Origin: Candidatus Iainarchaeum sp.
Lineage (GTDB): Archaea; Iainarchaeota; Iainarchaeia; Iainarchaeales; JAGVWC01
Reading direction: 5' to 3'
Assembly: GCA_018304465.1 (NCBI GenBank)
Contig: JAGVWC010000008.1
Location: 108,096 to 172,095, forward strand
Length of the DNA stretch: 64,000 nt
The position numbers were made by a program, and so were the translations under genes. Of the stretch, positions 4,006-56,331 are shown in pieces. The notes under the pieces were generated by a model. The model did not search any database, had not been told where the DNA came from, and saw only the letters and a program-made list of their open reading frames with translations. Numbering within the stretch: position 1 is the stretch's first letter; each line of letters opens with the position of its first letter.

Positions 4006-4020
4006 AAAAAGGGATGAACT

Positions 4021-4299: not shown

Positions 4300-4311
4300 A
4301 TTTACGAGTGA

Positions 4312-4791
4312 TTGAAAATGGCTCCAAAAAAGAAAACAGAAACCCAAACCAGAACCCTGACGATTTCGCTTGCCCAAGCACGACGCGCCTCGGCAAAAAA
4401 ACGCGCGAACAAAGCGATCAGCGTGATCCGAAACGACATCAAAAAACACACGCGACAAAAAATCGCCAACATCCGTCTCTCCGATGGAATCAACCGGGAA
4501 ATCTGGAGCCAATCCACGTTTAACATTCCCGCGCGCATCACCGTTTCTCTTTTGGTCGAAAAAGAAACCGTCCGCGCGTTCCTTGAAAAAACCAAGGAAA
4601 TAGACGCCTATTTGAAAACCAAAGACGCCAAGGAAAAAGCAAAGAAAAAAGAAGAAGCCAATGCCAAAGAAGAAGAGAAAAAAGAACCCGCCGAAAAAAA
4701 AGAAGAAGCGGCCAAAGAAGAGGAAAAAGAGCAAAAACTGGCGGAAAAAAAGGCCAAGGAAGACAACGCCAGGGCCGCAGAACTGAAGTAA
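4312..4791 (+). CDS. rpl31e: Ribosomal protein L31e with long K/E/A-rich C-terminal tail
   Basis: L31e core (RTLTISLAQARRASAKKRANKAISVIRNDIKKHT...IPARITVSL) followed by about 60 aa of KEKAKKKEE low-complexity. Confidence 0.75.
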   Translation: MKMAPKKKTETQTRTLTISLAQARRASAKKRANKAISVIRNDIKKHTRQKIANIRLSDGINREIWSQSTFNIPARITVSLLVEKETVRAFLEKTKEIDAYLKTKDAKEKAKKKEEANAKEEEKKEPAEKKEEAAKEEEKEQKLAEKKAKEDNARAAELK

Positions 4792-4799
4792 GGAACCCC

Positions 4800-5456
4800 A
4801 TGCGCGTCCAAAAACTATCCATTCGAGGCAGCCCCTTTGTCGGAGTGTTTCTCAAAGCAACAGACAAATTCTGCCTGGTTCCCGACGGATTGATTCCCAA
4901 AGACAAAAAAACGATTCAAAACATCCTCGGCGTCGAACCGATCGAAACCCGCATCGCGAACGCGTCCATCATCGGCGTGCTCTGCATCGCCAACCAAAAC
5001 CGCGTCTGCTTACCCAGCATGGTGGAACAAAAAGAAATCGACGCGTTGGAAAAAACCGGAATCAAAACCAGCGTGATTCCAACGGTCGAAGCCATCGGAA
5101 ACATGGTGTCGATCAACGACCATATCGGGCTCTGCGGAAACGCGTTGCGCGAAGAAACCCGCAAAACCCTTGAACGCGAACTCAACATCCCCATTGAACG
5201 CGTGACGATCGCCGGATCCGATCTCGCCGGAAGCGCAAGCATTCTGACCAACAAAGGATTCGTTTGCCACCCCAAAACACGACCCGACGAATACAAAATC
5301 CTCGAAGAAAAAACCGGTCTCAAAGGAAACCCGTCAAGCGCCAATTACGGCGACTTGTTCGTCGGAAACAGCGTGACCGCCAACAGTTTCGGCGCGTTGG
5401 TCGGAGAACACACGACCGGATACGAAATGATTGCGATTGACGAAGCACTGTCATAA
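4800..5456 (+). CDS. eif6: Translation initiation factor 6 (aIF6)
   Basis: 218 aa, pentameric-repeat pattern (GSPFVGVF...TNKGFVCHP...GNSVTANSFGALVG); conserved position after rpl31e. Confidence 0.85.
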   Translation: MRVQKLSIRGSPFVGVFLKATDKFCLVPDGLIPKDKKTIQNILGVEPIETRIANASIIGVLCIANQNRVCLPSMVEQKEIDALEKTGIKTSVIPTVEAIGNMVSINDHIGLCGNALREETRKTLERELNIPIERVTIAGSDLAGSASILTNKGFVCHPKTRPDEYKILEEKTGLKGNPSSANYGDLFVGNSVTANSFGALVGEHTTGYEMIAIDEALS

Positions 5457-12282: not shown

Positions 12283-12346
12283 GCGACCGACCAAGACCCT
12301 TTTTTTAATGCCTTCGGAGGCCAAAATCAGTACAAAAAGGATCTTT

Positions 12347-15300
12347 ATGGGCTTAGGCGACCAATTACGCGACGCAATGGAAAAACTGCGAAAAAGCACG
12401 TTTTCCGACCGCGACGAAATCAAAAGCATCGTCAAATCCATGCAACGCGCACTGATTTCAGCCGACGTACCCGTCAAACTCGTGCTCGAAGTATCCAAAA
12501 AAATCGAAGACGCCGCGTTCTCCGAACTTGCACCCGGACTCAACCGCCGCGAACACGTATTGAAAAACGCGTACGACAACCTCGCCGAAATACTCGGAGG
12601 ACAAACCAAACCCCCCCAAAACCCCAAACGCATTCTCATGGTCGGATTGTTCGGCTCCGGAAAATGCGTTCATCCTTTGACGATTGTGCCGACTGCGAAC
12701 GGGTGCGTTGAAACAATCCAAAAAATATACGAGAAAAACCCGGAAACGGAATTGACGCTCGAAGACGGATTTGTGAAAGAGTTGTCGAATCCGATCGAAG
12801 TTTTCTCGCTTAATCCACTCAACTTGAAAATGACAAGGGGAACAGTTTCACACATCTGGAAATTAAAAAAAGACAAATCCCTATACAAAGTCGCACTAGA
12901 CAACGGAAACAATCACGCAGTAATTGTCACACCGGAGCACCCGTTTTTTGTACTTGAAAACGCCCATATTAAAAAAACCAAAGCCGAGGAACTCACCGCG
13001 GGCGCATTTGTTGCGACACCAAGACAACTTCCTCTGCCAGAAAAACAAATCCCAATTAAGTACCTAGAGCAAAATCTTCCGCAGTCCTTTCAAGTGGTCT
13101 GCCCGGAACTGATAAATGAAGCCAAACAGTTTATGATCGCAAAATTTCATTCACTCACGAACGCATTTAACATTCTCGGAGAAGACTATGCGTATTGTAC
13201 ATTCACTGCAAACCTGAAGCGCGGGATATTGCGATTCTCAACTTTAAAAAAACTGAGGAATCAAGGGTTTGAGCCAAATGGAACACAGGAGATAAAGTTG
13301 AAAGAATTTGGCACGGGAGCGCGAACAATCCAGGTACCTAACCAACTAACGACCGAAATGGCGGAATTCATGGGGTATTTTTTTGCAGACGGCCATATGA
13401 GAAAGGAATATGTTGAAATTACCAACGAATCGAATGAAATACTCGATCGGATAGAAAAAATTGGAATGCGACTATTCCAGAAAAAACCGTGTCGAAAACA
13501 AGACAAGAGAAACGCTAACGTAAAACAAATCCTGTTCTGCTCAGGAGTCTTGACCAAGGCGCTTAACACGGTTTTTGGATTTCCATATTTTAAAAAAAGT
13601 GACATCATTCGCATACCCCCCATGATTTTGCAGGCGACAAAGGAAAATAAGTATGCCTTTTTGCAGGCATACTTTGACTGCGACGGCTACGTGTCAAAAA
13701 ACACTCGTCAGATAGAATTTTGCACTGCGAGTCCCCTCTTTGCTGAAGACCTGCGAATACTGCTCACAAGCCTTGAGATGCAGCCAAATTATAGCAAAAA
13801 GAAAATCAAGGACAAATATTACTACCGCGTCTGTATCAAATGCAAGGACGTGGAAACCTTCTTTCAGCGAGTAGGATCCCGAATTCCTTTCAAGCAAAAA
13901 CGCCTTGCGGGAATGTCTGAAATCGGAGTCGGCCAAACACTTGGAAAAAATGAATTGCTCCATGTCGGCCAATCCATCCGAGACGTTCGAAACCAACAGG
14001 GTGCAACCATTGGAGACATACAGCACCATGTTGGTTCCTACGGAATATACGAACAAGAAGGATTGATATCCCGCAATTCTCTTAAAAAATTCATTGAAGC
14101 GATCACGACTAAAACAAAAAACAAGAACAATCAGATACTCCAAAACACAATTCAACCGAAAAAACTGAATGAGTTAAGCACTGCGTTTCAAGAACCGCTT
14201 GGCTGGGTCAACGCCAATGTTTTTCGCCTGAAAGAACTTGGATTTGTCACATATTCCAACGGGGAAGTACAAACAACCGAACTCGGAAAGCAACTGCTTG
14301 AAAAAAACCAAAAAGACGAAGGGCTAGAACTTAAAAAACTAGAGTTGCTTGCCCATTCAGACATCACATGGATGAAAGTCAAGAAGATCGAGCTCGTTGA
14401 CAACACGGAATACGTGTACGACCTCACAGTTGATGAATACCATAACTTTGTTGCTAACCAGTTTATTGTACACAATACCACCACTTCCGGAAAACTCTGT
14501 CACTATTACCAAAAACGCGGAAAAAAAGTCGGACTGATCGCCGCGGACACGTTTCGACCCGCGGCCATGGAACAACTTGAACAAATCGCCAAAAAAATCA
14601 ACGCCACCGTCATCCTTGACAAAAACGAAACCAAACCCGAAAAAATAATCCAACAAGGATTACAACGCGAAAAAGAATTCGATTTGCTTATCTGCGATTC
14701 CGCCGGACGCAACGCGCTTGATTCCGAATTAGAACAAGAAATCAAAACCATCAACCAAACCTTCAAGCCCGACCAAGCCTGGCTCGTGCTCGGCGCGGAC
14801 CTCGGACAAATCGCCGGAACCCAAGCCAAAGCGTTTCACGACGCGGTCGGCGTCAACGGCGTGATCGTCACGCGCATGGACGGAAGCGCCAAAGGCGGCG
14901 GAACACTCGCGGCCTGCCGCCAAACCAACAGCCCCGTGTACTTTATCGGAACCGGCGAAAAAACATCCGACCTCGAAGAATTCGACGCGGTGCGATTCCT
15001 GTCCCGCATCATGGGATACGGAGACCTCCAATCGCTTTTGGAAAAAGCCCAAGAAGCCGCACAAGACACCGACATGGGACTCGAAGAACTGCTCGAACAC
15101 GACTACACCCTGGAAACGTTTTACAAACAACTCGAAGCCACCAACAAAATCGGCACCATGGACAAAATCATGGAAATGGTCGGAATGAAACAACAACTCC
15201 CAAAAGAAGCGGCGGAACAAGGACAAAAAAAACTCGAACAATTCCGGTTCATGATGCAAAGCATGACCAAAAAAGAAAAACAAAACCCCGATCTGATCAA

Positions 15301-15505
15301 TTCCAGCCGAATTCGCCGCATCGCCCGCGGAAGCGGCAACACCCAGGAAAACGTGCGCGAATTGCTCAAACAATACAAGCGAATGAAAAACGCGTTCAAA
15401 CAACTCAAAGGACTCGACGAAAAAAAACTACAACAAGGAATGGACATGAAAAAACTGCAGGAAATGTTTTCCCCGAAAAAAAAGAAAAAACTCCGTTTCC
15501 GCTAA
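12347..15505 (+). CDS. srp54: Signal recognition particle protein SRP54 interrupted by an intein (start could also be 12308)
   Basis: N domain, then G-domain P-loop split as GLFGSGK|C...VHN|TTTSGKL; downstream AADTFRPAAMEQLE, DSAGR, TRMDGSAKGG, M domain rich in Met. Extein reading frame preserved. Confidence 0.9.
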   Translation: MGLGDQLRDAMEKLRKSTFSDRDEIKSIVKSMQRALISADVPVKLVLEVSKKIEDAAFSELAPGLNRREHVLKNAYDNLAEILGGQTKPPQNPKRILMVGLFGSGKCVHPLTIVPTANGCVETIQKIYEKNPETELTLEDGFVKELSNPIEVFSLNPLNLKMTRGTVSHIWKLKKDKSLYKVALDNGNNHAVIVTPEHPFFVLENAHIKKTKAEELTAGAFVATPRQLPLPEKQIPIKYLEQNLPQSFQVVCPELINEAKQFMIAKFHSLTNAFNILGEDYAYCTFTANLKRGILRFSTLKKLRNQGFEPNGTQEIKLKEFGTGARTIQVPNQLTTEMAEFMGYFFADGHMRKEYVEITNESNEILDRIEKIGMRLFQKKPCRKQDKRNANVKQILFCSGVLTKALNTVFGFPYFKKSDIIRIPPMILQATKENKYAFLQAYFDCDGYVSKNTRQIEFCTASPLFAEDLRILLTSLEMQPNYSKKKIKDKYYYRVCIKCKDVETFFQRVGSRIPFKQKRLAGMSEIGVGQTLGKNELLHVGQSIRDVRNQQGATIGDIQHHVGSYGIYEQEGLISRNSLKKFIEAITTKTKNKNNQILQNTIQPKKLNELSTAFQEPLGWVNANVFRLKELGFVTYSNGEVQTTELGKQLLEKNQKDEGLELKKLELLAHSDITWMKVKKIELVDNTEYVYDLTVDEYHNFVANQFIVHNTTTSGKLCHYYQKRGKKVGLIAADTFRPAAMEQLEQIAKKINATVILDKNETKPEKIIQQGLQREKEFDLLICDSAGRNALDSELEQEIKTINQTFKPDQAWLVLGADLGQIAGTQAKAFHDAVGVNGVIVTRMDGSAKGGGTLAACRQTNSPVYFIGTGEKTSDLEEFDAVRFLSRIMGYGDLQSLLEKAQEAAQDTDMGLEELLEHDYTLETFYKQLEATNKIGTMDKIMEMVGMKQQLPKEAAEQGQKKLEQFRFMMQSMTKKEKQNPDLINSSRIRRIARGSGNTQENVRELLKQYKRMKNAFKQLKGLDEKKLQQGMDMKKLQEMFSPKKKKKLRFR
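12665..14476 (+). mobile_element. Intein in SRP54 P-loop (604 aa) with LAGLIDADG homing endonuclease domain
   Basis: Starts with Cys after GSGK, ends VHN before Thr+1; internal dodecapeptide motifs MGYFFADGHM and LQAYFDCDGYV. Confidence 0.85.
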
Positions 15506-24849: not shown

Positions 24850-25690
24850 GCATTTTACGGCGGCTGAAGGTTCGTCAAAAATCAGAATTGCTGTCGCGGT
24901 CTTGGCCGGTGAAGCATGGCCACATTTGCGCTTGGAATCGTTGTTTCTCCGGTTCAGGCTTTTCAAAAAAGTCGGTGCCCATAAAACTCTCGGTCCAACT
25001 GTTCCATCAACCAGGTTAATTTTCTTCCCGCCACCGACTCCCATTTCTTGTATACGGCAAGAACGGGATTTTTTTGGGTTTGCCGTCGACGCTTTTATGG
25101 AACCGGTCCACCACTGCGGTATCGGGCCGAAAATCCTTTCGGCGTGCATCGTCCCGACATTACTTGTGTGAGACAGTTTTTTTCCGGCGCGACACACGCA
25201 ACCGCGCCGCCACGTTTCGAATGCCGCTACGAATTGCACGACCCGTAGCCCGAACGGGCGCCTTCTGAAAACGATGCACCCACTGTTCCTTTCGGCGAAG
25301 CGACACCAGTTTCGCCCGCAACGCAAGAATATTCTTGTCTGCAAGCGCTATTCTCGTACGATGTGCACGCCCCAAACCCGCCGGACCCAATAAACGCGCA
25401 AATTCTGCAAGATCCCCACTGAGCGTTCTTTTCAAGCTTCGTTCCGCGGTTAGGCGTCGCCGTGCTTTGATGCGCCCAGCCGCCAGCCTGCGCCGCGTAC
25501 GTTCCAACAACCGTTGAGCGATTCGACCCATACTAATCGATCGAACAACTACCAAAAGGTTTAAAACCGTCACAGAAACGCCGTTCACCGGCAAACCACC
25601 CTCCCGATGTTTAAAAGCACCCAAACCGAAATAGAATATATTGGCGGACAAGACCGATTCCCTGCTCGGGGAAATTGGCCGTACAGCCGC
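24850..25690. ncRNA. Candidate structured non-coding RNA region (GC-rich, ORF-poor); weak RNase P RNA-like boxes
   Basis: About 850 bp without convincing ORFs; only R/W/C-rich spurious reverse ORFs. GC clearly above window average. AAAAGUCGGUGCCCAUA at 24967 resembles RNase P CR-I (GAAAGUCCGGGCUCCAUA) and CACAGAAACGCCG at 25571 resembles CR-V, but their spacing is too long for a single RNase P RNA. Confidence 0.25.
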
Positions 25691-25707
25691 CCACAGGAGG
25701 AAACAAC

Positions 25708-26778
25708 ATGAGCGAACGAACCGTCACGGTAAAACCGTCCAAACCAACCAAAGAAAAGGAAGAAAAAACCATTGAAGAACAAACTCTTTCTATGGACGAA
25801 ACCAAAACCGCCACTTCCGGAAAAAAAGAAGAAAGTGGAAAAGTCAAATCGATTACGGAACTACCCGGAATCGGACCCCAAACCGCTGAAAAACTCTTGC
25901 AAGCCGGATACAAAACCCTTGAATCCATCGCCGTCGCGTCCCCGATGGAATTAATGGAAGCCGCCGGCATCGGCGAAATCACCGCGGGAAAAGCCATTGG
26001 CGCCGCCCGCGAAAGCCTCGAAATGGGATACGAAACCGCCGACAAAATCCTTGCGCGACGCGAAACCCTTGAACGCATCTCCACCGGAAGCAAAGAACTC
26101 GACAGTTTAATCGGAGGCGGCGTCGAAACCCAAAGCATCACCGAAGTCTACGGACAATACGCCAGCGGAAAAACCCAGTGGGCATTCCAGCTATGCGTCA
26201 TGACGCAGCTTCCCACCGAACAAGGCGGACTATCCGGAAACATCCTTTACATCGACTCCGAAAACTCGTTTCGACCCGAACGCGTGGTTTCGATTGCCAA
26301 AGCCAAAGGACTTGATCCCGAAAAAACCCTCAAAAACATTTTCGTGGCCCGCGCCTATAACGCCGACCACCAGATGTTACTCGCCGAAAAAGCGGTCGAA
26401 ATGATCGCACCCAAAAACATCAAACTCATCATCGTGGACTCGCTCACCAGCCTGTTTAGAAGCGAATTCATCGGACGCGGACAACTCTCCGACCGGCAGC
26501 AACGCCTCAACCGCCACATGCACACCTTGCAAAAAGTCGCGGAAATGCACAACGTCGCCGTGCTGGTCACCAACCAAGTCATGAGCCGACCCGACGTTTT
26601 GTTCGGAGACCCAACCAGTCCGATCGGCGGACACATCGTAGGACACAACTCGAAAACGCGAATCTATCTGCGAAAAGCAAAAGAAAACAAACGCGTCGCC
26701 AAGTTAGTGGACTCGCCATCCCTTCCAGACGGAGAAGCCATTTACTCGCTTACCGACGCCGGAATCGAAGACGCCTAA
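25708..26778 (+). CDS. radA: DNA repair and recombination protein RadA
   Basis: GGAGG RBS before ATG at 25708; N-terminal HhH (ITELPGIGPQTAEKLLQAGY), Walker A GQYASGKTQ, Walker B LIIVDS; no intein. Confidence 0.9.
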   Translation: MSERTVTVKPSKPTKEKEEKTIEEQTLSMDETKTATSGKKEESGKVKSITELPGIGPQTAEKLLQAGYKTLESIAVASPMELMEAAGIGEITAGKAIGAARESLEMGYETADKILARRETLERISTGSKELDSLIGGGVETQSITEVYGQYASGKTQWAFQLCVMTQLPTEQGGLSGNILYIDSENSFRPERVVSIAKAKGLDPEKTLKNIFVARAYNADHQMLLAEKAVEMIAPKNIKLIIVDSLTSLFRSEFIGRGQLSDRQQRLNRHMHTLQKVAEMHNVAVLVTNQVMSRPDVLFGDPTSPIGGHIVGHNSKTRIYLRKAKENKRVAKLVDSPSLPDGEAIYSLTDAGIEDA

Positions 26779-29546: not shown

Positions 29547-32500
29547 ATGACAATTAAGTTCGTGAAAAAGCGAGACGGCCGCGTAGTCGCCTTTAATCAA
29601 GACACCATTACCAACGCGGTCTGGAAAGCCGCCAAAGCGGTTGGCGGAAAAGACAAATCACTGGCGGTCGAATTATCCAGAAAAGTCGTTCACGAACTCG
29701 AAAAAAAATTCCCCGAAAAACACGTTCCCACCGTGGAAGAAGTCCAGGACGCCGTTGAAAAAGTACTGATTGAACAAGGCCACGCGCGAACCGCGAAAGC
29801 CTACATCATTTACCGCCAGCAACACGCCGAAATCCGGCGCGAAAAAGCCCTGGTGCTTGACAAACAAGAAACCGACGAAGTCGACAAACGATTCGACTTA
29901 AACGCGTTACGCGTCTTAAAAGCGCGTTACCTGCGCAAAGACGCCGCGGGAAAAACCATCGAAACCCCAAAAGAACTCTTCACCCGCGTCGCGGTACACG
30001 TACTGATCCCCGAATTGCTCTACGATCCCCGCGTCTTTGACAAAGAAGCGACCCAAAAAACCCACCCCGTGGAGCCGTTTGACAACGTCGAAAACGAATA
30101 CAAATTATCCATTGGAAAATACCAACTCAACCAATACCATCTTGAAGCCCTAAAACGCGTGTACGATAAGTTTTCCCGCCAAGGCAAAATGAAAATGCCG
30201 TGGGGACGATTCTTAGAAATGCTCAAAAACGGAGAATTCGACCAACACGAAACCAGCGGAGACGAATTCTACAGCCTCATGGTGTACAAAAAATTCATGC
30301 CCAATACCCCTGCGATCGCCAATTTCGGAGCGGTCCTTGGAATGGGCAGCGCCTGTTTTGTTATGGATGTCCGCGACAATATCGAAGGCATCATGGACAC
30401 CCTCAAAAACGCCACCATCGTATTCAAATCCGGCGGCGGCGTCGGATACAATTTCTCGAAACTCCGACCCGAAGGCGATTTCGTTTCCACCACCACCGGC
30501 GCGGCCAGCGGCCCCATCTCGTTTATGGGACTGTTCGACAAAATGACCGAAGTCATCAAACAAGGCGGAATCCGCCGCGGCGCCAACATGGGAATTCTCA
30601 ACTGCCTTGCAGGAGATACCGAGATTTCAACCATTGAAGGACGCAAAAAAATCAAAGAACTGGTTGGAACACAACCCCACCTGTACTGCCTAAATGATAC
30701 CAATGAAGTGCGGATCCGGCAAGCGAACCGTGTCATCCACTCCGGCCAAAAAAAACTGGTTCGAATCACCTTCGACGACGATACCCGCATTGATTGCACG
30801 CCCGATCATCGCATCATGCGCTCGAACGGCCAGTATACACACGCCCAAGACCTCCAGCCCCTTGACAGCGTCATGGCGTTCCATAAGAAAATACTCAACG
30901 ACCGCTACTTTATCGGTTCCACTATGAGCCCACTTTCCCCCGAGCACGTCATCGCCACCGAAACCAACAGCAAAGTACTGATCGAGCAGACCGGCCAAAC
31001 ACGATTGTCCAACGACCTGTGCGTCCACCACAAGGACAACAACCCCCTCAATAACCACCCGAATAACCTGCAAGTGCTTACCATTTCAGAACATGCCAAA
31101 ATACACTCCGATGTCCTGATCGAAAACCAAAAAAGAATCGCGATTTCACGGAAAGGAAAAACGATCGAACAGGTTTATGGCAGCGAAAAAGCGGATGCAT
31201 GGAAACAAAAAATGAGCCAAGCACGACGAAACAAAAAACCTTGGAACGCCGGCTCCGACACAGAAGTCTACAAAGCCCATTACAAAAACGGATTCAAGAA
31301 CCAATACGAATACGCCAACGCCAACCACAAAGTGGTCAAAGTCGAACCACTGGAGGGCATTCACGACATCTACGACATTATCATGGACGATTACCACAAC
31401 TTCGTCGCGAACGGCGTCTTTGTCCACAACTCAAACCACCCGGACATCGAAAAATTCATCACCGCCAAAGAAGGCAACAAACAACTCACCAACTTCAATA
31501 TCTCCGTGCTCATGATGCCGGACTTCTGGGAATACTACAACAAAAACGAACCCTACCCCCTGATCAATCCCCGCGACGGAGAAGTCGTCCGAACCGTGAA
31601 CCCCCGCATGCTCTTTGACATGATTGTCTACCAAGCATGGGAAAGCGCGGAACCCGGCGTGATCTTCTACGACAAAGTCAACGAATACAACCCGTTCTAC
31701 GAACACCTCGGACCCATTGTGACCACGAATCCCTGCGTGACTGGAGACACGCGCGTATCCACCGCAAAAGGATTGGAACGCATCGACCAACTTGCACCCG
31801 GCCTAATTACTGTGGATTCGCGTGTAAACGCGCTTTCAAACAAAAGCGGCTCGAAATCGCTCCAACTTGGAACCCAGCAAGGAACCGCAATTCAGGTCAT
31901 TAAAACTGGAACCAAACCCGTGTTCCGAGTGGAAACCACCAGTGGATTTGAAATCAAAGCAACAGCAGATCACAAGATACTGACCCCCCACGGATGGAAA
32001 GCAGTTGAGCAACTGACCGCTGGAAACGAAATACTGATCCAAAGCGGGGCAGGAAAATTCAATTCAGATTCCGCATTACCTTTTATTGTGGAAAATACCC
32101 CCGTCGGAAAAAACGGAAAAAAGTACCGGAATAACCTTCCCGCAAAATGGAGCTACGATCTCGGCCTCGTTATGGGCTGGATGCTCGGCGACGGATGGCT
32201 CAATGATCAAGCGAACCAAGTGGGGCTCGTATTTTCAAAACCGGACTATGAAGCAAAAGAACAGCTCAAACCTATTTTTGAGCATTATTGTAACCGATCC
32301 ATAAAGCTCACCAACAGAGATCAAAGTGCAGTTCAGATCCGAAGCAACAGCAAGTATGTTACAGAGTACTTCTTCAAACTCGGACTCACTTCCGTCGATA
32401 AGGAAAAAGAAGTTCCAAGCACGATTTACACCGCAACCGAAGAGGCAGTCAGAGGATTCCTCAAAGGATTATTTTCTTCGGATGGAACTATTGCGCACCA

Positions 32501-34148
32501 AAAAGAGAGCAGAAACTATGTACGACTAAATTCCAGTTCACTTACATTACTCAAAGGAGCGCAACGATTGCTTCTCAATCTTGGAATCAAAAGTACGATT
32601 TATGATCGCTCAACCGAACCAAAAACATTCAAATACATCACGGCAAAAAACCAAACTAAGCAATATCAAACCAGTGGCGAAAATTATGAGCTAAATATCA
32701 GCAAAGAAAATTTGCCACGCTTTTTAGACAAAATCGGTTTCATTCAAAGCCGACACACCCAGACGGCAGCAAAAATACAACAACACGAATTTTACACTGA
32801 ATATTTTGTTGAAAAAATAAAAACCATCGAGGCTGCCGGCATCGAAGATGTCTACGATCTTACGGAACCGACCACCCATTCATTTATCGGAAACGGAATA
32901 CTGCTACATAATTGCGGCGAAGTATTGTTGTATCCGAACGAAAGCTGTAACCTTGGAAGCGTCAATGTCTGGACGTTTTTCAAAGAAGACGAAGACGGAA
33001 CCCAATACTTTGACTGGGATGACCTCAAAAAAACCGTGCAAACCGCAAGCAAGTTTCTCGACAACGTCATTGACGTGAACAAGTTTCCATTAAAAGCCAT
33101 CGAAGACATGACCGACGCCACGCGCAAAATCGGACTCGGAGTCATGGGCGTCGCCGACTTGTTTTACGAACTCAAACTCCCCTACAATTCCCCCGAAGCG
33201 CGCGATGCCGCCGAAAAACTCATGGAATTCATCAACTACCACAGCAAAGCCGTTTCCATTGACCTGGCCAAAACCCGCGGACCCATGCCCTACAACGACA
33301 AAAGCTTTTACCTCGAAGGCCGGCTCGCGATTTCAGGACCCGAAACCAAAGAAAAACTCCACTTCAACTGGGACGACATCCGCGAAGGATACAAAAAATT
33401 CGGTTCCCGCAACGGCTACAACACCGTCATCGCGCCCACCGGAAGCATCTCCATGATCGCGGGCTGCAGCTCCGGAATCGAACCCGTGTACTCACTCGTA
33501 TTCGAAAAAAACGTCAAAGTCGGAAGCTTCTACTACGTCGACCCCGTCTTTGAACGCATCATGAAACAAGAAGGACTCCACGACAGCAAACTCATGGAAG
33601 ACGTATCCGAAAACGGCGGAAGCATCCAACACATCCCGTATTTGACCAACGAACAAAAACACGTTTTCGTCACTGCCATGGACATCACCCCTGAAGACCA
33701 CATCCGAATGCTCGCCGCGTTCCAACGCTGGTGCGACTCCAGCATTTCGAAAACCAACAACTTTCCGGCCGACGCGACCGTCGAAGACATGCGCGCCAGT
33801 TACCTGCTCGCATACCAATTGGGATGCAAAGACGTTACGGTTTTCCGCGACAGCTCCATCAAAGCCCAAGTGCTGAACGCACCCAAGAAAAAAACCGTGG
33901 ACACGAGCTCGCTCAAACTCGAGGCCAGCAAAGCCCAAACCATGCAAGCGATTTCGCCTTCACCTGCCCCCATAACCCAAACCGCCAAACCCGCGGAAAC
34001 AAAACAAGTCACGGGCCGAAGCACTTCGACAGTCCAGCAACCCAAAAGCAAATACGAAATCACGAACTGCCCCAACTGCAACTCCGTGACCCAAATCAAA
34101 GAAGGCTGCGTCAACTGCCCCGAATGCGGCTGGGGAATGTGCAACTAA
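29547..34148 (+). CDS. nrdJ: Ribonucleoside-diphosphate/triphosphate reductase, class II (adenosylcobalamin-dependent), with ATP cone, two inteins and C-terminal zinc ribbon
   Basis: ATP cone KFVKKRDGRVVAFNQDTI; catalytic exteins ...GANMGILN|SNHPDIEKF... and ...TTNP|CGEVLLYPNESCNLGS; C-terminal CPNCNS...CVNCPECG. Confidence 0.85.
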   Translation: MTIKFVKKRDGRVVAFNQDTITNAVWKAAKAVGGKDKSLAVELSRKVVHELEKKFPEKHVPTVEEVQDAVEKVLIEQGHARTAKAYIIYRQQHAEIRREKALVLDKQETDEVDKRFDLNALRVLKARYLRKDAAGKTIETPKELFTRVAVHVLIPELLYDPRVFDKEATQKTHPVEPFDNVENEYKLSIGKYQLNQYHLEALKRVYDKFSRQGKMKMPWGRFLEMLKNGEFDQHETSGDEFYSLMVYKKFMPNTPAIANFGAVLGMGSACFVMDVRDNIEGIMDTLKNATIVFKSGGGVGYNFSKLRPEGDFVSTTTGAASGPISFMGLFDKMTEVIKQGGIRRGANMGILNCLAGDTEISTIEGRKKIKELVGTQPHLYCLNDTNEVRIRQANRVIHSGQKKLVRITFDDDTRIDCTPDHRIMRSNGQYTHAQDLQPLDSVMAFHKKILNDRYFIGSTMSPLSPEHVIATETNSKVLIEQTGQTRLSNDLCVHHKDNNPLNNHPNNLQVLTISEHAKIHSDVLIENQKRIAISRKGKTIEQVYGSEKADAWKQKMSQARRNKKPWNAGSDTEVYKAHYKNGFKNQYEYANANHKVVKVEPLEGIHDIYDIIMDDYHNFVANGVFVHNSNHPDIEKFITAKEGNKQLTNFNISVLMMPDFWEYYNKNEPYPLINPRDGEVVRTVNPRMLFDMIVYQAWESAEPGVIFYDKVNEYNPFYEHLGPIVTTNPCVTGDTRVSTAKGLERIDQLAPGLITVDSRVNALSNKSGSKSLQLGTQQGTAIQVIKTGTKPVFRVETTSGFEIKATADHKILTPHGWKAVEQLTAGNEILIQSGAGKFNSDSALPFIVENTPVGKNGKKYRNNLPAKWSYDLGLVMGWMLGDGWLNDQANQVGLVFSKPDYEAKEQLKPIFEHYCNRSIKLTNRDQSAVQIRSNSKYVTEYFFKLGLTSVDKEKEVPSTIYTATEEAVRGFLKGLFSSDGTIAHQKESRNYVRLNSSSLTLLKGAQRLLLNLGIKSTIYDRSTEPKTFKYITAKNQTKQYQTSGENYELNISKENLPRFLDKIGFIQSRHTQTAAKIQQHEFYTEYFVEKIKTIEAAGIEDVYDLTEPTTHSFIGNGILLHNCGEVLLYPNESCNLGSVNVWTFFKEDEDGTQYFDWDDLKKTVQTASKFLDNVIDVNKFPLKAIEDMTDATRKIGLGVMGVADLFYELKLPYNSPEARDAAEKLMEFINYHSKAVSIDLAKTRGPMPYNDKSFYLEGRLAISGPETKEKLHFNWDDIREGYKKFGSRNGYNTVIAPTGSISMIAGCSSGIEPVYSLVFEKNVKVGSFYYVDPVFERIMKQEGLHDSKLMEDVSENGGSIQHIPYLTNEQKHVFVTAMDITPEDHIRMLAAFQRWCDSSISKTNNFPADATVEDMRASYLLAYQLGCKDVTVFRDSSIKAQVLNAPKKKTVDTSSLKLEASKAQTMQAISPSPAPITQTAKPAETKQVTGRSTSTVQQPKSKYEITNCPNCNSVTQIKEGCVNCPECGWGMCN
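30603..31430 (+). mobile_element. Intein 1 in RNR (276 aa) carrying HNH endonuclease motif
   Basis: Begins CLAGDTEI, ends VFVHN before Ser+1; internal HHKDNNPLNNHPNNLQVLTISEHAKIH HNH box. Confidence 0.8.
31734..32912 (+). mobile_element. Intein 2 in RNR (393 aa) with LAGLIDADG homing endonuclease domain
   Basis: Begins CVTGDTRV, ends ILLHN before Cys+1 (CGEV); motifs MGWMLGDGWL and LKGLFSSDGTI. Confidence 0.85.
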
Positions 34149-34792: not shown

Positions 34793-34842
34793 GAAGAAAT
34801 CTGAATCCCATTCTTTTTAAGAATTCCCCCGCAAAATTATTT

Positions 34843-35112
34843 GGGCCAGGTGAGGGGGCTAGCGGTCCCCTGTACCCGAAATCCGCTTCATGCGGGAACC
34901 CACGCTGTCAAAACGTGAATTGGGCTTGTACCAAAGCCATTGTTTGGACGACGACCCTTTGTCCTAAAAGGTCGATGGCAATTGCCAACCCGCCAGGTTC
35001 GGAAGAAAGCAACGGTACCAATCGTCTTCGATGCTTTTAGACCGCAGAGGCGAGGAAAAACAATGGACTAAACTTTGGGACAAAACCAGTGCGCTATTTG
35101 GCAGCGGCCCAC
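34843..35112 (+). ncRNA. ffs: Signal recognition particle RNA (7S/SRP RNA)
   Basis: Helix 8 signature GCCAGGUUCGGAAGAAAGCAACGGUACC at 34990-35018; 5' GGGCC and 3' GGCCC ends can pair; GC-rich, ORF-free; located between two protein genes. Confidence 0.7.
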
Positions 35113-35119
35113 TTGAAAA

Positions 35120-37096: not shown

Positions 37097-38944
37097 ATGC
37101 AATACGCCCACCAAACCGGGGAAGACCTCTTAGAAAAAGTCCGCAACAGCCATTTTTCGTCGGAAATACCGCTGATTCGAAAAGCGCTTGAAAAAAACAA
37201 ACCTCTTCCCGAACACACCCGAACGCTTGCCATCGACACGGCAAGCACGTTGACCCAATTTGGATTCGGAAAAACGGCCGTCTGCGCGGCACTGCTTCAA
37301 TTCCACGATCTTGAAACCCTCAAAGGCGAATTCGAATCCGAAATACTGGAACTGGCCCACGGACTGCAAAAAATCGAGCGCGTGAAAGCCAAGAACCGGG
37401 GAAAACTATCCCCGGAATCACTGCAAAAAATCATTCTGGCCTTGTCACCGGATCCCCAAATCATCATCATCTGGATCTGCAAAAAACTCGTGGAACTGAG
37501 GTTTTTGTCCGAACAACCCAAAGACGAACAACTTCCGCTGGCCGAAGACGTGCTCAATCAATGGGTCCCCGTTATTCACAAACTCGGGCTGCACAAAATC
37601 CGGTGGGAAATCGAAGATCTGGCCATGAAAAAAATCCTGCCCAAAGAATACAAAGCCATCAAAGAATACCTCAACGACAAGCGAAACACGCGACAAGAAA
37701 AAATGCGCGAACTCGTCGAAAAACTCCGATCCGCGCTACAAAAAGCCCAACTTGAAGCTGTGGTATTCGGACGCGTCAAAAACTTTTACCGCATTTACAA
37801 AAAAATGAACGAACAAAAACGAAACCTGAAAGACATCCACGATTTGATCGGCGCGCGCGTCATCTGCAACAGCGTAAACGAGTGCTACGAAACACTTGCC
37901 GTGATCCAGAACTCCTTCAAACTCGAAACCCAAGGATTCGATGATTACATCCAAAAACCCAAAAAAACAAAGTACCAATCCATTCACGTCGACCTGGACT
38001 GGAAAGGAATACCATCCGAAATACAGATTCGAACCTGGGAGATGCACAAAGAAGCCGAAGAAGGCGTCGCCGCGCACTGGGAATACAAACAATACAAAAA
38101 AGACCCGACGTTTGACCGGCACTTAACGATTGCCAAACAACTGGCGGAATGGTTCGACCAAGTACACCACAAAAGCATCATGGACTCGCTGAACCTAAAA
38201 TTCGAAAAAAACAAAATCTTCGTTTTAACCCCAAAAAGCGAACTCGTGGAGCTGCCCGAAAAAGCCACCCCCGTCGATTTTGCGTTTGCCGTGCACACAG
38301 AACTCGGATACAAATGCGAAAAAGCCCGCGTGAACGGAAAAATCGTCCCGCTCGATTACCAACTCCAAAACGCGGACAGCGTCGAAATCATCACCAGCGA
38401 AAAGCAAATTCCAAAACAACACTGGTTAACGTTTGTTCAAACCGAAAAAGCGAAACAAAAAATCCGAACCAAACTGAACATCGTTCCGACAAAACCCGAA
38501 AAAGAAAAAAAAACCGGAATCGTAAAAGCGACGTTCCGGAAAAACGCGCAGTTCCTTCCCGCCAAATGCTGCTCGCCGATTCCGGGCGATGAAATCGTCG
38601 GGCACAAAACCACGAAACGAAAAATAAAAATCCACCGGATCGACTGCCCCAATGCCCAGCGGATACCCGAAGACGAGCGACTGACACTATCCAACGCATC
38701 GTTCACTCAAAAAGAATTCGAAACCACGCTGCGAATCAACGTGCACAACCAGCCGGGAGTACTCTCCGAAATACTGGACGCCATCGGCAAACACGATACC
38801 AAAATCATTTCCACCGAAGCCGTTACGCACGCGCACTCAATCACATGCCGATTCCGCATCAAAACAAAAAACAGGAAAACCTTCGAGCAAACCGCCGAAC
38901 GCGTACAGAAAATCAAAGGGATTATCGACGTACAACGCGGATGA
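37097..38944 (+). CDS. Long RelA/SpoT homolog (partly degenerate HD, synthetase, TGS, ACT)
   Basis: AALLQFHDLE HD remnant; synthetase DLIGARVICNS...YQSIHVDL...EIQIRTWEMHKEAEEGVAAHWEYK; TGS IFVLTPKSELVELPEKATPVDFAFAVHTELG; C-terminal ACT-like. Confidence 0.75.
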   Translation: MQYAHQTGEDLLEKVRNSHFSSEIPLIRKALEKNKPLPEHTRTLAIDTASTLTQFGFGKTAVCAALLQFHDLETLKGEFESEILELAHGLQKIERVKAKNRGKLSPESLQKIILALSPDPQIIIIWICKKLVELRFLSEQPKDEQLPLAEDVLNQWVPVIHKLGLHKIRWEIEDLAMKKILPKEYKAIKEYLNDKRNTRQEKMRELVEKLRSALQKAQLEAVVFGRVKNFYRIYKKMNEQKRNLKDIHDLIGARVICNSVNECYETLAVIQNSFKLETQGFDDYIQKPKKTKYQSIHVDLDWKGIPSEIQIRTWEMHKEAEEGVAAHWEYKQYKKDPTFDRHLTIAKQLAEWFDQVHHKSIMDSLNLKFEKNKIFVLTPKSELVELPEKATPVDFAFAVHTELGYKCEKARVNGKIVPLDYQLQNADSVEIITSEKQIPKQHWLTFVQTEKAKQKIRTKLNIVPTKPEKEKKTGIVKATFRKNAQFLPAKCCSPIPGDEIVGHKTTKRKIKIHRIDCPNAQRIPEDERLTLSNASFTQKEFETTLRINVHNQPGVLSEILDAIGKHDTKIISTEAVTHAHSITCRFRIKTKNRKTFEQTAERVQKIKGIIDVQRG

Positions 38945-46232: not shown

Positions 46233-47015
46233 TTAAAAGCGTTGAGTCCTAAGACTCAGTTTTTCCGCAGTTTTGGCTAAACGCCACTGTTTGACAGGGT
46301 GCAAAAATAAGTGATTTTCCGCCAAAAAAACAATATCAGAAAAACGTTCCACTTGAATATACGCCGAAACGTTATTTGGATCCAAATAAGGACCGTTCAT
46401 TTTCAGTCCGAAAGCCGATTCGAAAAGACTTTTCACTTCACGAATAAACGGGATACATTTCATTCGAATTTTGACGCGAGGGGCAGATTTAAATCCACCT
46501 TCTACGGCACGTGTGTCTCCCTCCGCGTCAAATAAACCCCGCAAAAACCACCGTTGTAATTCCACTGGAGCGTTCCAGACCACAGCAGGGGCATGTAATG
46601 AATTCGTCTTTGAACCGCACGGAAGTTCAAAAAGAACAGTCAAAAATAAATACACCCGCTTACTTGTCGGGTTGATGTACAGCGTTCGTTCCCCTTTACT
46701 TAAACGCTCATAGCGAATAGGGGGACAATCGCCAAACAAATCAGAATACAACGATTGAATAAACATCATCTGAGACTCAAATTCGTCCGCGATGATCATC
46801 TTGTACTCCCGACGGCGGGAAACCAAATATGAACGCTCGACATTCTTTAATCCACCGTCACCGAAGAAATAACCAGCAAAATACGCGAGTTTTGGCGAAA
46901 GCTCCGTTGGGCAGTTTGCAAATTCATGACTTGGTAAAGAATCAATCGGACTTGCGGGACAGAAAGGATCAACCAATTCGGATTCCGAAATAAAGCCATA
47001 AGCTGTTCGAAGCAT
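46233..47015 (-). CDS. Free-standing LAGLIDADG homing endonuclease
   Basis: Two dodecapeptide motifs LAYFAGYFFGDGG and LRGLFDAEGD; no intein splice boxes at the termini. Confidence 0.75.
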   Translation of the reverse strand: MLRTAYGFISESELVDPFCPASPIDSLPSHEFANCPTELSPKLAYFAGYFFGDGGLKNVERSYLVSRRREYKMIIADEFESQMMFIQSLYSDLFGDCPPIRYERLSKGERTLYINPTSKRVYLFLTVLFELPCGSKTNSLHAPAVVWNAPVELQRWFLRGLFDAEGDTRAVEGGFKSAPRVKIRMKCIPFIREVKSLFESAFGLKMNGPYLDPNNVSAYIQVERFSDIVFLAENHLFLHPVKQWRLAKTAEKLSLRTQRF

Positions 47016-47082: not shown

Positions 47083-47168
47083 CGGGCTCAGTGGGGATCG
47101 AACCCACGATCACTCGGTTGCTCCAAGAACCTAAGAGCCGAGTGCTTTACCGGCTAAGCTATGAGCCC
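47083..47168 (-). tRNA. tRNA-Lys (CTT) with 13-nt anticodon-loop intron
   Basis: GGGCTCA TA GCTT AGCCGGTA AAGC A CTCGG CTCTTA[GGTTCTTGGAGCA]A CCGAG TGATC GTGGG TTCGATC CCCAC TGAGCCC G; anticodon assignment depends on exact intron boundaries. Confidence 0.55.
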
Positions 47169-47173
47169 AAATG

Positions 47174-47245
47174 CGAGACCGGTGGGACTCGAACCCACAG
47201 CCCACGGGTTAAAAGCCCGTTGCGCTACCATTGCGCCACGATCCC
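47174..47245 (-). tRNA. tRNA-Lys (TTT)
   Basis: GGGATCG TG GCGC AATGGTA GCGC A ACGGG CTTTTAA CCCGT GGGCT GTGGG TTCGAGT CCCAC CGGTCTC G; acceptor has two G-U pairs. Confidence 0.75.
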
Positions 47246-52972: not shown

Positions 52973-53572
52973 TTAGACTGTTTTCAGATCCGAAACTAAC
53001 GAACTAAACTTTTTCAGCTTGTTTGATTTCGGCGCACAGGATTGAAACCACTCGTGACTGGTGACGCGCTGCGCTTCACCAAGCAAAAACGCCTTGTGGG
53101 CCGCATCCACTTTTTGCCCCGCTTTGGCGGTTGCCAAAATCGCGGAGATCTCCGAATCCAATTTTTCATGTTCTTTTGAATTCGACAACACGAACCAGCG
53201 GTCCAACACGTTTTCAAACGCGCCCACCATTTCATCCGGAGACACGTCTTTTTCGTTCATGTAATACACCGCTTTCCAATCTCCTTTACCCACCCACTTG
53301 TGAGACGGATTCTTTCCGGTTTTGAAAAAATCGATCAGAGGAGACAGCATCGCTTGGGGAATGATAACACAGTTTTTTCCCGGACGCAAATACGGCACCG
53401 GAGAAAGAATTCCTTTGCGATGATACTTATAGGATTTGCCGTTGGACTTCGAAACGTTTTGGGTATAGCCATACAACGCCCGGAACAGCTTTTGATAGGT
53501 ATACGATGAATGACTGATATTTTCTGGTAGAATGAACTTATACTGAATGAAATACGCTTTCACAGACCCCAC
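52973..53572 (-). CDS. Hypothetical protein
   Basis: 199-aa ORF, Y/K-rich N-terminus; no motif recognised. Confidence 0.4.
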   Translation of the reverse strand: MGSVKAYFIQYKFILPENISHSSYTYQKLFRALYGYTQNVSKSNGKSYKYHRKGILSPVPYLRPGKNCVIIPQAMLSPLIDFFKTGKNPSHKWVGKGDWKAVYYMNEKDVSPDEMVGAFENVLDRWFVLSNSKEHEKLDSEISAILATAKAGQKVDAAHKAFLLGEAQRVTSHEWFQSCAPKSNKLKKFSSLVSDLKTV

Positions 53573-53666: not shown

Positions 53667-54002
53667 TTAGCGTCGTCGTGCAATCGGCGGGCGAGGTCTA
53701 AATCCAGTCGTAGGTTGAGGTTCTTCCTCTTCTTCCGGTTCCGGGTTAGTAGGCGCGTTGCCCACAAGGATAATGTCCTTGGTTGCTCGAACGTTTCTAA
53801 ATGGAATGCTCTTTTCGCTAATGACTTTTTTTGCTTCTTGCTTAGAGCGGAATTTAAGCGGTTCCGTGGTAATCGTTTCGATGCGTCCCTTTTCCAGGTT
53901 AATAACTAAGTCAAATACCTTTCCTTTGTACTCAGCAGTTGTGGAATAGATGTCCATTCCAAAAAGCTTTGAGATTCGTGATGTCATGTGAAAATCCTCC
54001 AA
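53667..54002 (-). CDS. PRC-barrel domain protein with acidic/proline-rich tail
   Basis: GMDIYSTTAEYKGKVFDLVINLEKGRIETI typical of archaeal PRC barrels; C-terminal EPEEEEEPQP. Confidence 0.5.
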   Translation of the reverse strand: MEDFHMTSRISKLFGMDIYSTTAEYKGKVFDLVINLEKGRIETITTEPLKFRSKQEAKKVISEKSIPFRNVRATKDIILVGNAPTNPEPEEEEEPQPTTGFRPRPPIARRR

Positions 54003-54222: not shown

Positions 54223-56331
54223 TCATAGGCTATCAAAAGGACTCTTCACTTTTTTCAGTTCTTCCGTTCGCACCGTGGTGTAAATCTGGGTGGTGTTCAG
54301 ATTTGCATGACCCAACAATTCTTGGATCTTTCGAATACTTTCTCCCGCTTCCAGCAAATGCGTGGCGTATGAATTGTGTACTACAAAACCATCCGCAAAC
54401 AGATTTTCTGTTCCAGCCACGGTAAAATCATACACTGGGACGGTATCCCGCACTGGCAGGATCTTGGTTACTTCCATCCATTTGTAGTTCTCTCCCAATA
54501 ATGAACGAATCGCATTGCGTTCTTCCAAAAAATCCGGTTCTTTTTCGATTTCGTGCAAAATTTTCGCGACCGTCTCTCGGACCGGAATGATTTTTCCCGT
54601 GTAGCGCTTCAAATGCTTAATTCCTTGCCGGGTTTGCAAACGATAAATAAATCCCCGCTGTTGCAGCAGTTTTGGGTACATCTTTTTCAAAATCAAATGT
54701 GCCGGGATCCACTCTCCCACGGAATCGTTTTCAATTCGAAGTTTTTTTTGGGTTGGGATCAGCAACTCAAACAACACTTGGTCCGGACGGCGAAGAATGA
54801 ATAATTCAAAAATTGTGTGCGAAATAATTCGGCCTTGAGGCAACTTCACTTTTCGATCTCGCTGATGAAAATACGAATTGATTCCAAGTCGCAGCAAAAG
54901 AACCTGCACATCCTTTAGCAATTCTTTACTAGTAGAAAAAAAGCGCGGAACCCCCTCGTTCCCGTCTGCGTCATACAAACCTGCCAGAAATTCGCATACT
55001 TCTTCAGTGCTTGCCGAGAATAACTCCATTGGTATCCGCTTCGTAGGCGCCCGCCTGTCCATATCCAGTAACTGACAGGTGTGCACCAAATCAACAGAAT
55101 AATACGCCAACTCAAACGAGTTTCTTCCATGCGTCGGGTGAATAAACGGTCGCTTTCCAAACTGTTGCTCCAAAAGCGATTGGTAAAACTGCAAAAACGA
55201 AAGGTTCTTATCACAAATCACAACCCCACGCCGACTATCGCTTATGGTTCCGTCTCCTAACGCATATCCCACAAAACGCCACCAGGCCGGAGATGCACGC
55301 CGGGTTTCCGCAATCGTAACTTTTTTGGGGCCCAGCACAAAATCGCCGGGCTTTAAATCTTTGGCACATGCTTCCCCAAGGCCATACACAGTCGCTACAA
55401 AAAAACGATGCTCTGGCGTGCATGTTAACAAATAACCACCCGCATTGACTTCGAGAAGCCCTTCTGCATACTGCATGAACGCACCCACCAACGGGGCATT
55501 GATCACGTGTTGTGTGTTCCATTCAAAGCTTCGAACCAAGGTGCCTTTTCCGGAAAACAAAGCCTGCGCGGAAACAATTCCATTCGAAGTAAAAATCCGA
55601 GTATTCGCTTCTACACAGTGACGCATGCTGTGCGGCGTCACTTCTTTTTGAATTCCCGCCTTGGCCGCCGCTTTGCGAATAATACGCTGAATGGTATCCA
55701 CCGAAATGGATGTCCCGGTAGTTTTTTTGGAGAACACAAACTCGCTTGAAACTTTTTTTCGCTTCAAATAGCGCTTCAGATCCGACACCCAATTCTTGGA
55801 CAAGATAATGATACGGTCCTTGTTTCCTTTGCCGCCTTTCACTCGGCCGATAAACTCGCTTAACTCGAGGTCCGCGACCTTGAGTTTGACGGCTTCGCTT
55901 ACGCGCACGCCGGACGAATACAAAAATTCGACAATCAAACGATTACGCCCCTTCTTGGTCGCTTTGATCAACGCTTTTACTTCGGCCTTGGTGAGAACGG
56001 TCGGGAGCTTTTTGGCTTTTTTCATGGCGCGCACGTCTTCCATGATTTTTAATTTTAAAAAATTTCCAAAAAAGAATTTGAGCGCCGAGTGCGCCAATGC
56101 CAAACTCGAATTCGAAATATTTTCTTTCTCCTTGCGGTTCGCGATGTATCCCACGATATCCGCTTTTTCGGTTTCTTCCACGGGCTTTTGGAGCGACTTC
56201 AAAAAATCCGAAACCAAAAACAGATATGTTTTGATCGTCTGCTTCGAGTACCCCGTGACGACCAGTTCCTGGCGAAAACGCGTCAGCATTTCCTGGTTAT
56301 GCGGCAAAATTTCCGAATCCGTTTCGCTCAT
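54223..56331 (-). CDS. xerA: XerA/XerC-like tyrosine recombinase interrupted by an intein
   Basis: N-terminal core-binding domain; catalytic exteins ...TPHSMRH|SYATHLLEAGESIRKIQELLGHANLNTTQIYT (R-H-R-H-Y boxes) flank a 415-aa insertion. Confidence 0.8.
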   Translation of the reverse strand: MSETDSEILPHNQEMLTRFRQELVVTGYSKQTIKTYLFLVSDFLKSLQKPVEETEKADIVGYIANRKEKENISNSSLALAHSALKFFFGNFLKLKIMEDVRAMKKAKKLPTVLTKAEVKALIKATKKGRNRLIVEFLYSSGVRVSEAVKLKVADLELSEFIGRVKGGKGNKDRIIILSKNWVSDLKRYLKRKKVSSEFVFSKKTTGTSISVDTIQRIIRKAAAKAGIQKEVTPHSMRHCVEANTRIFTSNGIVSAQALFSGKGTLVRSFEWNTQHVINAPLVGAFMQYAEGLLEVNAGGYLLTCTPEHRFFVATVYGLGEACAKDLKPGDFVLGPKKVTIAETRRASPAWWRFVGYALGDGTISDSRRGVVICDKNLSFLQFYQSLLEQQFGKRPFIHPTHGRNSFELAYYSVDLVHTCQLLDMDRRAPTKRIPMELFSASTEEVCEFLAGLYDADGNEGVPRFFSTSKELLKDVQVLLLRLGINSYFHQRDRKVKLPQGRIISHTIFELFILRRPDQVLFELLIPTQKKLRIENDSVGEWIPAHLILKKMYPKLLQQRGFIYRLQTRQGIKHLKRYTGKIIPVRETVAKILHEIEKEPDFLEERNAIRSLLGENYKWMEVTKILPVRDTVPVYDFTVAGTENLFADGFVVHNSYATHLLEAGESIRKIQELLGHANLNTTQIYTTVRTEELKKVKSPFDSL
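54373..55617 (-). mobile_element. Intein in tyrosine recombinase (415 aa) with LAGLIDADG domain
   Basis: Starts CVEANTRI after MRH, ends VVHN before Ser+1; motifs FVGYALGDGTIS and LAGLYDADGNEG. Confidence 0.8.

Follow-up and report, generated by a model that had tools for sequence, protein, structure and literature searches.

Inteins that interrupt a conserved catalytic motif of a DNA-recombination enzyme, and whose splicing the host activity needs, have been described in Mycobacterium tuberculosis RecA and in Pyrococcus RadA, and splicing of the RadA intein responds to single-stranded DNA (PMC5238726). Dependence on ligation has also been engineered into tyrosine recombinases, in that split-intein Cre and Dre are active only once the intein has ligated their two halves (PMC3973285, PMC7217698, PMC12403448). 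Here, we describe a naturally interrupted tyrosine recombinase gene, xerA, in a 64,000-nucleotide stretch of contig JAGVWC010000008.1 from Candidatus Iainarchaeum sp. (hereafter the window; all positions refer to it). The insert is very probably a mobile class-1 intein with an active-looking LAGLIDADG endonuclease, located in box II (HxxRH/S; slashes here and below mark the insertion point) of the chromosomal xerA of this DPANN-type archaeon.

Translation of the gene and location of the junction strings define the insert as precursor residues 239–653, 415 residues encoded at 54373..55617 on the reverse strand, with Cys1 at codon 55615–55617 and the terminal Asn at codon 54373–54375. The junctions read TPHSMRH/CVEANTRIF...GFVVHN/SYATHLLEAG, placing the insertion between H238 and S654 of box II (PHSMRH/SYATHLL). 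The sequence-only reading of this stretch had proposed a 415-residue intein in a tyrosine recombinase at 54373–55617; the same coordinates were recovered here, the Intein_splicing model matches at 52 bits (cutoff 35.8), and the proposed LAGLIDADG content is represented by two LAGLIDADG_3 stretches (Pfam, 64 bits). The same reading had the recombinase split directly after its catalytic His/Arg pair. Box II is indeed split, but the classical HxxR pair is H234/R237, and the residue before the intein (the −1 residue) is H238, the conserved box II histidine that follows this pair. On the other side of the junction, S654 doubles as the +1 nucleophile and the native serine of the SYAT box.

The identity of the host protein is clear from its exteins. 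In the 702-residue precursor, the Pfam Phage_integrase match consists of two pieces flanking Intein_splicing and the two LAGLIDADG_3 stretches; on the exteins joined in silico, it is a single continuous match (profile positions 2–171, E = 1.3e-42). The joined exteins (287 residues) score 267.9 bits against the archaeal XerA equivalog model of NCBIfam (NF040815, recomb_XerA_Arch; cutoff 220) over positions 2–262 of 263, and the precursor still scores 242.6 bits with the intein in place. They align end to end with Pyrococcus abyssi XerA (4A8E, E = 2.4e-49), where the junction is ungapped (…tphqlrhsfathmle…), and over the full length with Thermoplasma acidophilum XerA (5HXY, E = 1.1e-45), again gap-free at the junction; the initial description of the host as XerA-like thus stands. 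Motifs and the alignment with 4A8E assign the catalytic residues R143 (SGVRVSE), a hairpin Lys in GKGNK (K168/K171), H234 and R237 to the N-extein, and H675 and the nucleophilic tyrosine Y684 to the C-extein; for the catalytic lysine within the GKGNK motif, we presume the same choice as in XerD. With this R-K-H-R-H-Y set and a SAM-like domain, the joined exteins constitute a full-length archaeal XerA, presumably the recombinase that resolves chromosome dimers. The intein and XerA matches are both far above chance, confirming the observation.

The insert itself carries every splicing block of a class-1 intein: Cys1, block B (TPEH, with T67 and H70 in intein numbering), block F (VYDF, D397) and block G (VVHN, H414/N415), followed by Ser+1, so that a plain domain insertion is not borne out. 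The C-terminal splicing region scores 29.5–31.3 bits on TIGR01443 (intein_Cterm, cutoff 15.6), and the insert also matches the intein portions of several intein-containing proteins in NCBIfam. An AlphaFold2 model of the intein, built from a 12-sequence alignment, has a mean predicted local distance difference test (pLDDT) score of 92.5 and a predicted template modelling (pTM) score of 0.91. It shows beta-rich termini (intein residues 1–100 and 376–415), an alpha/beta core (~106–290) and a five-helix extension (~300–375). The best Foldseek matches of the model in the Protein Data Bank (PDB) are all endonuclease-bearing inteins (7QSS, E = 2.9e-26; 1DQ3, E = 1.2e-23; 7QST; 2CW7; 1VDE), with free LAGLIDADG enzymes such as I-DmoI ranking next, and the sole match in a sequence search of the PDB with the intein is PI-PfuI (1DQ3, E = 4.7e-6). 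The helical extension has no domain match, and the region is conserved in all homologs; it probably provides an extra DNA-contact module. Together, sequence and model describe the insert as a canonical class-1 intein with a predicted HINT fold.

By analogy with characterized class-1 inteins, xerA would be translated whole as the 702-residue precursor, Cys239 would undergo an N-S acyl shift, Ser654 would then attack the thioester, and cyclisation of Asn653 would free the 415-residue intein. The HINT domain would in this way join H238 to S654 and yield a 287-residue XerA with an intact PHSMRH-SYATHLL motif, and the ligated protein would carry the tryptic junction peptide HSYATHLLEAGESIR. As a 48-kDa insert keeps R143, the hairpin lysine, H234 and R237 apart from H675 and Tyr684, an inactive precursor is expected, and it is reasonable to infer, as had been suggested from the outset, that recombination is strictly splicing-dependent. 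The excised endonuclease, in turn, would cut intein-less xerA at the ~30 bp that encode box II, and repair would copy the intein into the cut allele (homing). No segment of the tyrosine-recombinase superfamily is more conserved than box II, which would explain both the insertion point and a wide host range: this conservation would let the intein jump among distant hosts, across the divide between CPR (candidate phyla radiation) bacteria and DPANN archaea as well as into further subfamilies of integrases.

The genomic context shows both the interrupted allele and its empty counterpart. The neighbours of xerA include genes for SerRS, Trm56, TFE-alpha, a PRC-barrel protein, methyltransferases, Dus and diphthamide synthase, and the window encodes an archaeal signal recognition particle (SRP) RNA (34839–35114); the gene sits in a chromosomal housekeeping locus, not in an integrated element. 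A tblastn search of the 64-kb window with the extein returned xerA only, and no further tyrosine recombinase. A search with the spliced extein returned 2184 matches at E ≤ 1e-40, and the best extein homologs bear Micrarchaeota and Diapherotrites labels, which marks the host as a DPANN-type archaeon. Among the best 120 of the 2184, 118 are proteins of 278–375 residues with no intein domain on record, and the remaining two are a 430-residue fragment of the window protein itself and a 228-residue fragment. The former (P0002; P and L numbers denote proteins and loci) matches the window protein exactly over ~395 residues from the N terminus, differs at three positions close to its own end, which reads …IHTTHG…RRGPP, and lacks the C-terminal portion; it probably reflects an incomplete gene call on a near-identical contig. 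The top extein homologs are P0185 (290 residues, intein-less), with 82% identity, and P0186, with 71%. The locus of P0185 (L090) has the gene order of the window, running from diphthamide synthase, Dus, a helix-turn-helix regulator, a methyltransferase and a small open reading frame (ORF) to xerA, and then, again as in the window, to the PRC-barrel gene, a 199-residue gene, a methyltransferase and TFE. Two more distant intein-less orthologs (L082, L083) preserve the order xerA, PRC barrel and 196-residue gene, such that intein-less alleles are found at the syntenic locus in all three. The uninterrupted site of L090 is identical to the joined window flanks at 69 of 90 nucleotides and reads …CACACCATGCGACAT/TCCTATGCCACACATCTATTAGAA… around the junction. 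Such patchy occurrence, alongside orthologous genes in which the target site is empty, is the pattern that characterizes homing endonucleases and identifies the insert as a putative member of that group.

The box II intein is not confined to this genome: it is one widespread allele, found in CPR bacteria, in DPANN archaea and in further integrase subfamilies, a spread that the sequence-only reading had not noted. A search of full-length proteins identified 33 protein clusters that carry the intein, all at the same site, H-x-x-R-H/C…HN/(S/C)(F/Y)AT; database names for these homologs are either 'tyrosine-type recombinase/integrase' or 'LAGLIDADG family homing endonuclease'. An intein-only alignment, run against one genome per GTDB species, gave at least 66 loci with the same architecture, about 10 in DPANN archaea (Woese-, Pace- and Nanoarchaeota) and about 55 in CPR/Patescibacteria (Saccharibacteria, Microgenomates, Parcubacteria groups, Kazan and Peregrinibacteria). 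The best-scoring models are XerA for the archaeal exteins and XerC/XerD for the CPR exteins, the latter below the cutoffs of those models. Seven of the GTDB records with this allele (L003, L008, L014, L026, L040, L044 and L057) are titled Chloroflexi, Gammaproteobacteria or Pseudomonadales; their exteins are archaeal-type (L003) or CPR-type, which suggests mis-binning or mislabelled metagenome-assembled genomes. In an exhaustive phmmer search of the intein against 1.84 billion cluster representatives, 28 proteins matched at E ≤ 1e-30, and below these the list falls steeply into inteins of other hosts.

Among the better matches, the same RH/S site is also occupied in tyrosine recombinases that are not Xer proteins (P0055–58, P0061, P0062, and L059 at 2261–3499), short integrases without the SAM-like N-terminal domain, some of which have SSV-like C-exteins. 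The shared site implies that the intein crosses tyrosine-recombinase subfamilies, possibly by way of mobile elements. Beyond recombinases, its closest relatives are inteins in RadA (P0065, P0066) and in a radical-SAM protein (P0064), at 27–35% identity. The searches gave no good evidence for viral carriage of the box II intein. A tblastn search of 50,697 phage records returned one weak match (26% identity), to an Aeromonas phage thymidylate synthase, and the sole Xer-with-intein locus in IMG/VR (L084; IMGVR_UViG_3300025015_000021, 94 kb, locus 4001–5266) has a CPR-like extein (SFASDLL); the contig may be CPR DNA wrongly classed as viral, or else a genuine phage or plasmid vector. A second IMG/VR record, L085, is an intein in a RecA-like protein.

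Comparison of the inteins with their hosts points to movement between lineages. The window protein and its CPR counterparts are 34–40% identical over their inteins, but just 28–33% over their exteins. Extein trees divide cleanly into an archaeal and a bacterial half; intein trees place the DPANN inteins in two clades, each with 100% bootstrap support, with CPR inteins between them, and a single DPANN clade was obtained in 0 of 60 replicates. The same discordance is visible in individual cases: the extein of P0010 is sister to that of P0006 and its intein groups with that of P0011; L021 and L053 share 83% identity in the intein vs 59% in the N-extein; and L024 and L016 share 74% in the intein vs 92% in the N-extein. 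The conflict between intein and host trees argues for horizontal, cross-domain spread, and the simplest reading would be that homing and horizontal transfer recurred, at least twice between a bacterium and an archaeon. In the window, the G+C content at third codon positions is 0.47 for the intein, 0.61 for the N-extein and 0.54–0.60 for seven other genes, consistent with a foreign origin of the intein.

A census of 84 unique full-length inteins of the Xer box II family was used to compare the constraint on the splicing and endonuclease residues. Cys1, the block B histidine, the block F aspartate and the terminal His-Asn are each present in 84/84, as is a Thr or Ser at the first position of block B; the −1 residue is His in all, and position +1 is occupied by Ser (76 inteins) or Cys (8 inteins). 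Such invariance would not be expected unless selection acted for splicing. Both LAGLIDADG acidic residues are kept in 83 of the 84, the exception being P0007 (GGG), and for pairs with a computable rate of synonymous substitution (dS) the ratio of nonsynonymous to synonymous rates (dN/dS) takes rough values of 0.03–0.12 for the intein and 0.04–0.15 for the endonuclease core.

These data bear directly on whether the intein could instead be a domesticated, regulatory module, in which conditional splicing (in response to redox state, temperature or DNA binding) would provide a post-translational switch for the timing of XerA action. The same role has been proposed for the inteins of RadA, DnaB and others, and conditional splicing of the Pyrococcus horikoshii RadA intein is on record (PMC5238726, PMC5790916). 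The position of the Xer intein, adjoining the catalytic residues of a DNA-binding enzyme, would suit such a switch, as would the retention of the allele over deep divergence in streamlined CPR/DPANN genomes; the eight Cys+1 alleles, moreover, would pair Cys1 with Cys+1 in a possible disulfide. However, the sequence shows no feature peculiar to regulation, all alleles but one keep the endonuclease active site, the nearest relatives are intein-less, and the intein and host trees conflict. A retained endonuclease, a patchy distribution and tree conflict together indicate an actively mobile selfish element rather than a fixed regulatory module, and we regard the regulatory explanation as quite unlikely. 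A broader proposal, that the intein forms a conditional post-translational gate (for example redox- or DNA-triggered) on Xer dimer resolution in ultra-small CPR/DPANN cells, and that its repeated exchange among Xer genes of bacteria and archaea marks direct DNA traffic between the two episymbiont groups, is likewise speculative, and we consider it unlikely.

A very improbable alternative is an insert that does not splice, whether a degenerate intein or a simple inserted domain, in a xerA copy that has lost its function or works despite the interruption. The Xer intein family is not free of decay, as the lost LAGLIDADG aspartate of P0007 and a frameshifted copy attest: in L052 (CAYVRE010000001.1, Saccharibacteria label, locus 2206–4399), a +1 frameshift lies within the intein near precursor residue 590, and represents either a decaying copy or a sequencing error. 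In the window, by contrast, the ORF is intact and every splicing residue is present, the exteins are 60–82% identical to intein-less orthologs with all catalytic residues kept, and the splicing residues are those found invariant across the 84 homologs. Finally, a chimeric contig in which assembly or binning fused a foreign intein to a xerA fragment, as metagenome assemblies can in principle produce, has nothing specific in its favour and is excluded for practical purposes by the exact 702-residue protein on eight public contigs (up to 164 kb) and by the recurrence of the in-frame architecture in at least 66 independently assembled genomes and 33 protein clusters.

The mobile class-1 intein thus remains the preferred explanation, and several points weigh against it. 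The N-terminal splicing model, TIGR01445 (intein_Nterm), scores 23.8–24.4 bits on the insert, slightly below its cutoff of 24.5. The trees are neighbour-joining trees of about 416 columns, which support cross-domain transfer but no particular direction or number of events. Synonymous sites are saturated in most species-level pairs, making the dN/dS ratios rough and few of them usable. Moreover, we infer from sequence and model that the intein splices and cuts DNA and that the precursor is inactive.

Coordinates of the xerA precursor gene, its intein and the adjoining synteny markers in the window (aa, amino acids).
Feature	Position	Strand	Description
xerA precursor gene	54223..56331	-	702 codons plus stop; N-extein, intein and C-extein; ORF intact
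N-extein, aa 1-238	55618..56331	-	SAM-like core-binding domain (Pfam PF13495) and first portion of the catalytic domain (PF00589)
Intein, aa 239-653	54373..55617	-	Reads as canonical class 1; C1, TPEH, VYDF, VVHN, then Ser+1
HINT N-terminal half, intein residues ~1-100	55318..55617	-	Blocks A and B; modelled entirely as beta-strands
LAGLIDADG homing-endonuclease domain, intein residues ~106-290	54748..55302	-	Motif 1 GYALGDG (D122); motif 2 FLAGLYDADG (D218)
Helical extension, intein residues ~291-375	54493..54747	-	Five helices; model helices 307-373, pLDDT ~90
HINT C-terminal part, intein residues 376-415	54373..54492	-	Blocks F and G; TIGR01443 above cutoff
C-extein, aa 654-702	54226..54372	-	S654 (SYATHLL box), H675 (LLGH), Y684 (TQIYT)
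PRC-barrel gene	53667..54002	-	Immediately downstream of xerA; Pfam PF05239; synteny marker
199-aa gene	52973..53572	-	No Pfam match; second synteny marker; 196-199 aa gene in the same place in L082, L083 and L090

In each of the four loci compared (the window, L082, L083 and L090), the genes xerA and PRC barrel are directly followed by one for a 196–199-residue protein, and the three could form a conserved xerA-linked cluster of unassigned function. Elsewhere, the window also encodes a full-length RelA/SpoT-type protein (37097–38944, forward strand) with HD, RelA_SpoT, TGS and ACT domains; long RelA/SpoT homologs are not known to be common in archaea.

With the xerA intein, the window contains at least four inteins. 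The ribonucleotide reductase (RNR) gene (29547–34148, forward strand, 1533 residues) has two. The first (~C353–N628; ILN/CLAGDTE…VFVHN/SNHP) includes an HNH-like stretch (HHKDNNP…EHAKIH) and is not of the LAGLIDADG type; the second (~C730–N1122; TTNP/CVTGDTR…ILLHN/CGEV) has a LAGLIDADG domain. In the SRP54 gene (12308–15505, forward strand), a 1065-residue precursor holds a ~604-residue intein with a LAGLIDADG domain in the GTPase P-loop (GSGK/CVHPL…FIVHN/TTTSGKL); neither SRP nor FtsY is named in the main text of the intein survey by Novikova et al. (2016; PMC4760082). A free-standing ORF of 260 residues (46233–47015, reverse strand), which adjoins two tRNA genes (47083–47245), has one LAGLIDADG_3 match (E = 8e-7) and is weakly similar to the Xer intein endonuclease. 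Origin of the Xer intein from the RNR or SRP54 inteins, or from this ORF, was considered and rejected, as the similarity is weak (26–50% over short stretches).

The Xer box II intein is an apparently undescribed intein allele in an apparently undescribed host family, notable for its CPR–DPANN distribution but with ordinary chemistry and architecture. In the open-access full-text literature, the matches were engineered split-intein Cre, Dre and φC31 or unrelated co-mentions, and no tyrosine recombinase with a natural intein was found, in agreement with the earlier impression that inteins are not commonly described in this family. The main text of the Novikova survey names neither integrases nor Xer, and the intein exception models among the NCBIfam matches here are those for GyrA and Tes, with none specific to Xer. 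The tyrosine recombinase/integrase superfamily joins the natural intein hosts, and a new LAGLIDADG endonuclease is added, predicted to target the stretch of DNA that is best conserved among Xer genes. As a compact and well-conserved family, the intein also offers a clean marker of CPR–DPANN gene flow. The general view of inteins is unchanged: chemistry and architecture conform to expectation, as does the preference for motifs conserved in enzymes of DNA metabolism.

Compared with inteins of solved structure, TliVMA (7QSS), PhoVMA (7QST), PI-PfuI (1DQ3, an RNR intein), PI-TkoII (2CW7) and PI-SceI (1VDE), the Xer intein has the same layout, a HINT domain split by a two-motif LAGLIDADG endonuclease with an extra module, and the same class-1 residues (Cys1, TxxH, HN and the +1 nucleophile). 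The match to its model is strong (Foldseek E values of 2.9e-26 to 1e-11, TM-scores up to 0.68), yet the sequence identity is just 9–20%, and the hosts differ: V-ATPase, RNR and DNA polymerase for the solved inteins, a tyrosine recombinase for this one. RecA and RadA are likewise DNA-recombination enzymes, but both are P-loop ATPases, whereas the Xer host has the tyrosine recombinase/type IB topoisomerase fold; the response of RadA splicing to single-stranded DNA has no known counterpart in the Xer intein, and the window's own radA (25675–26778) is intein-free. The XerA proteins of known structure (4A8E, 5HXY) have the same domain order and catalytic residues as the spliced extein, but without an intein. 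The engineered Cre and Dre recombinases follow the same logic, in that they depend on ligation as the natural xerA precursor would. Those are artificial and trans-splicing, with mini or split inteins at designer sites, whereas the xerA intein is natural, lies in box II, carries a predicted homing endonuclease and would splice in cis. With an insertion point that splits the active site, it is the natural counterpart of these split-intein tools.

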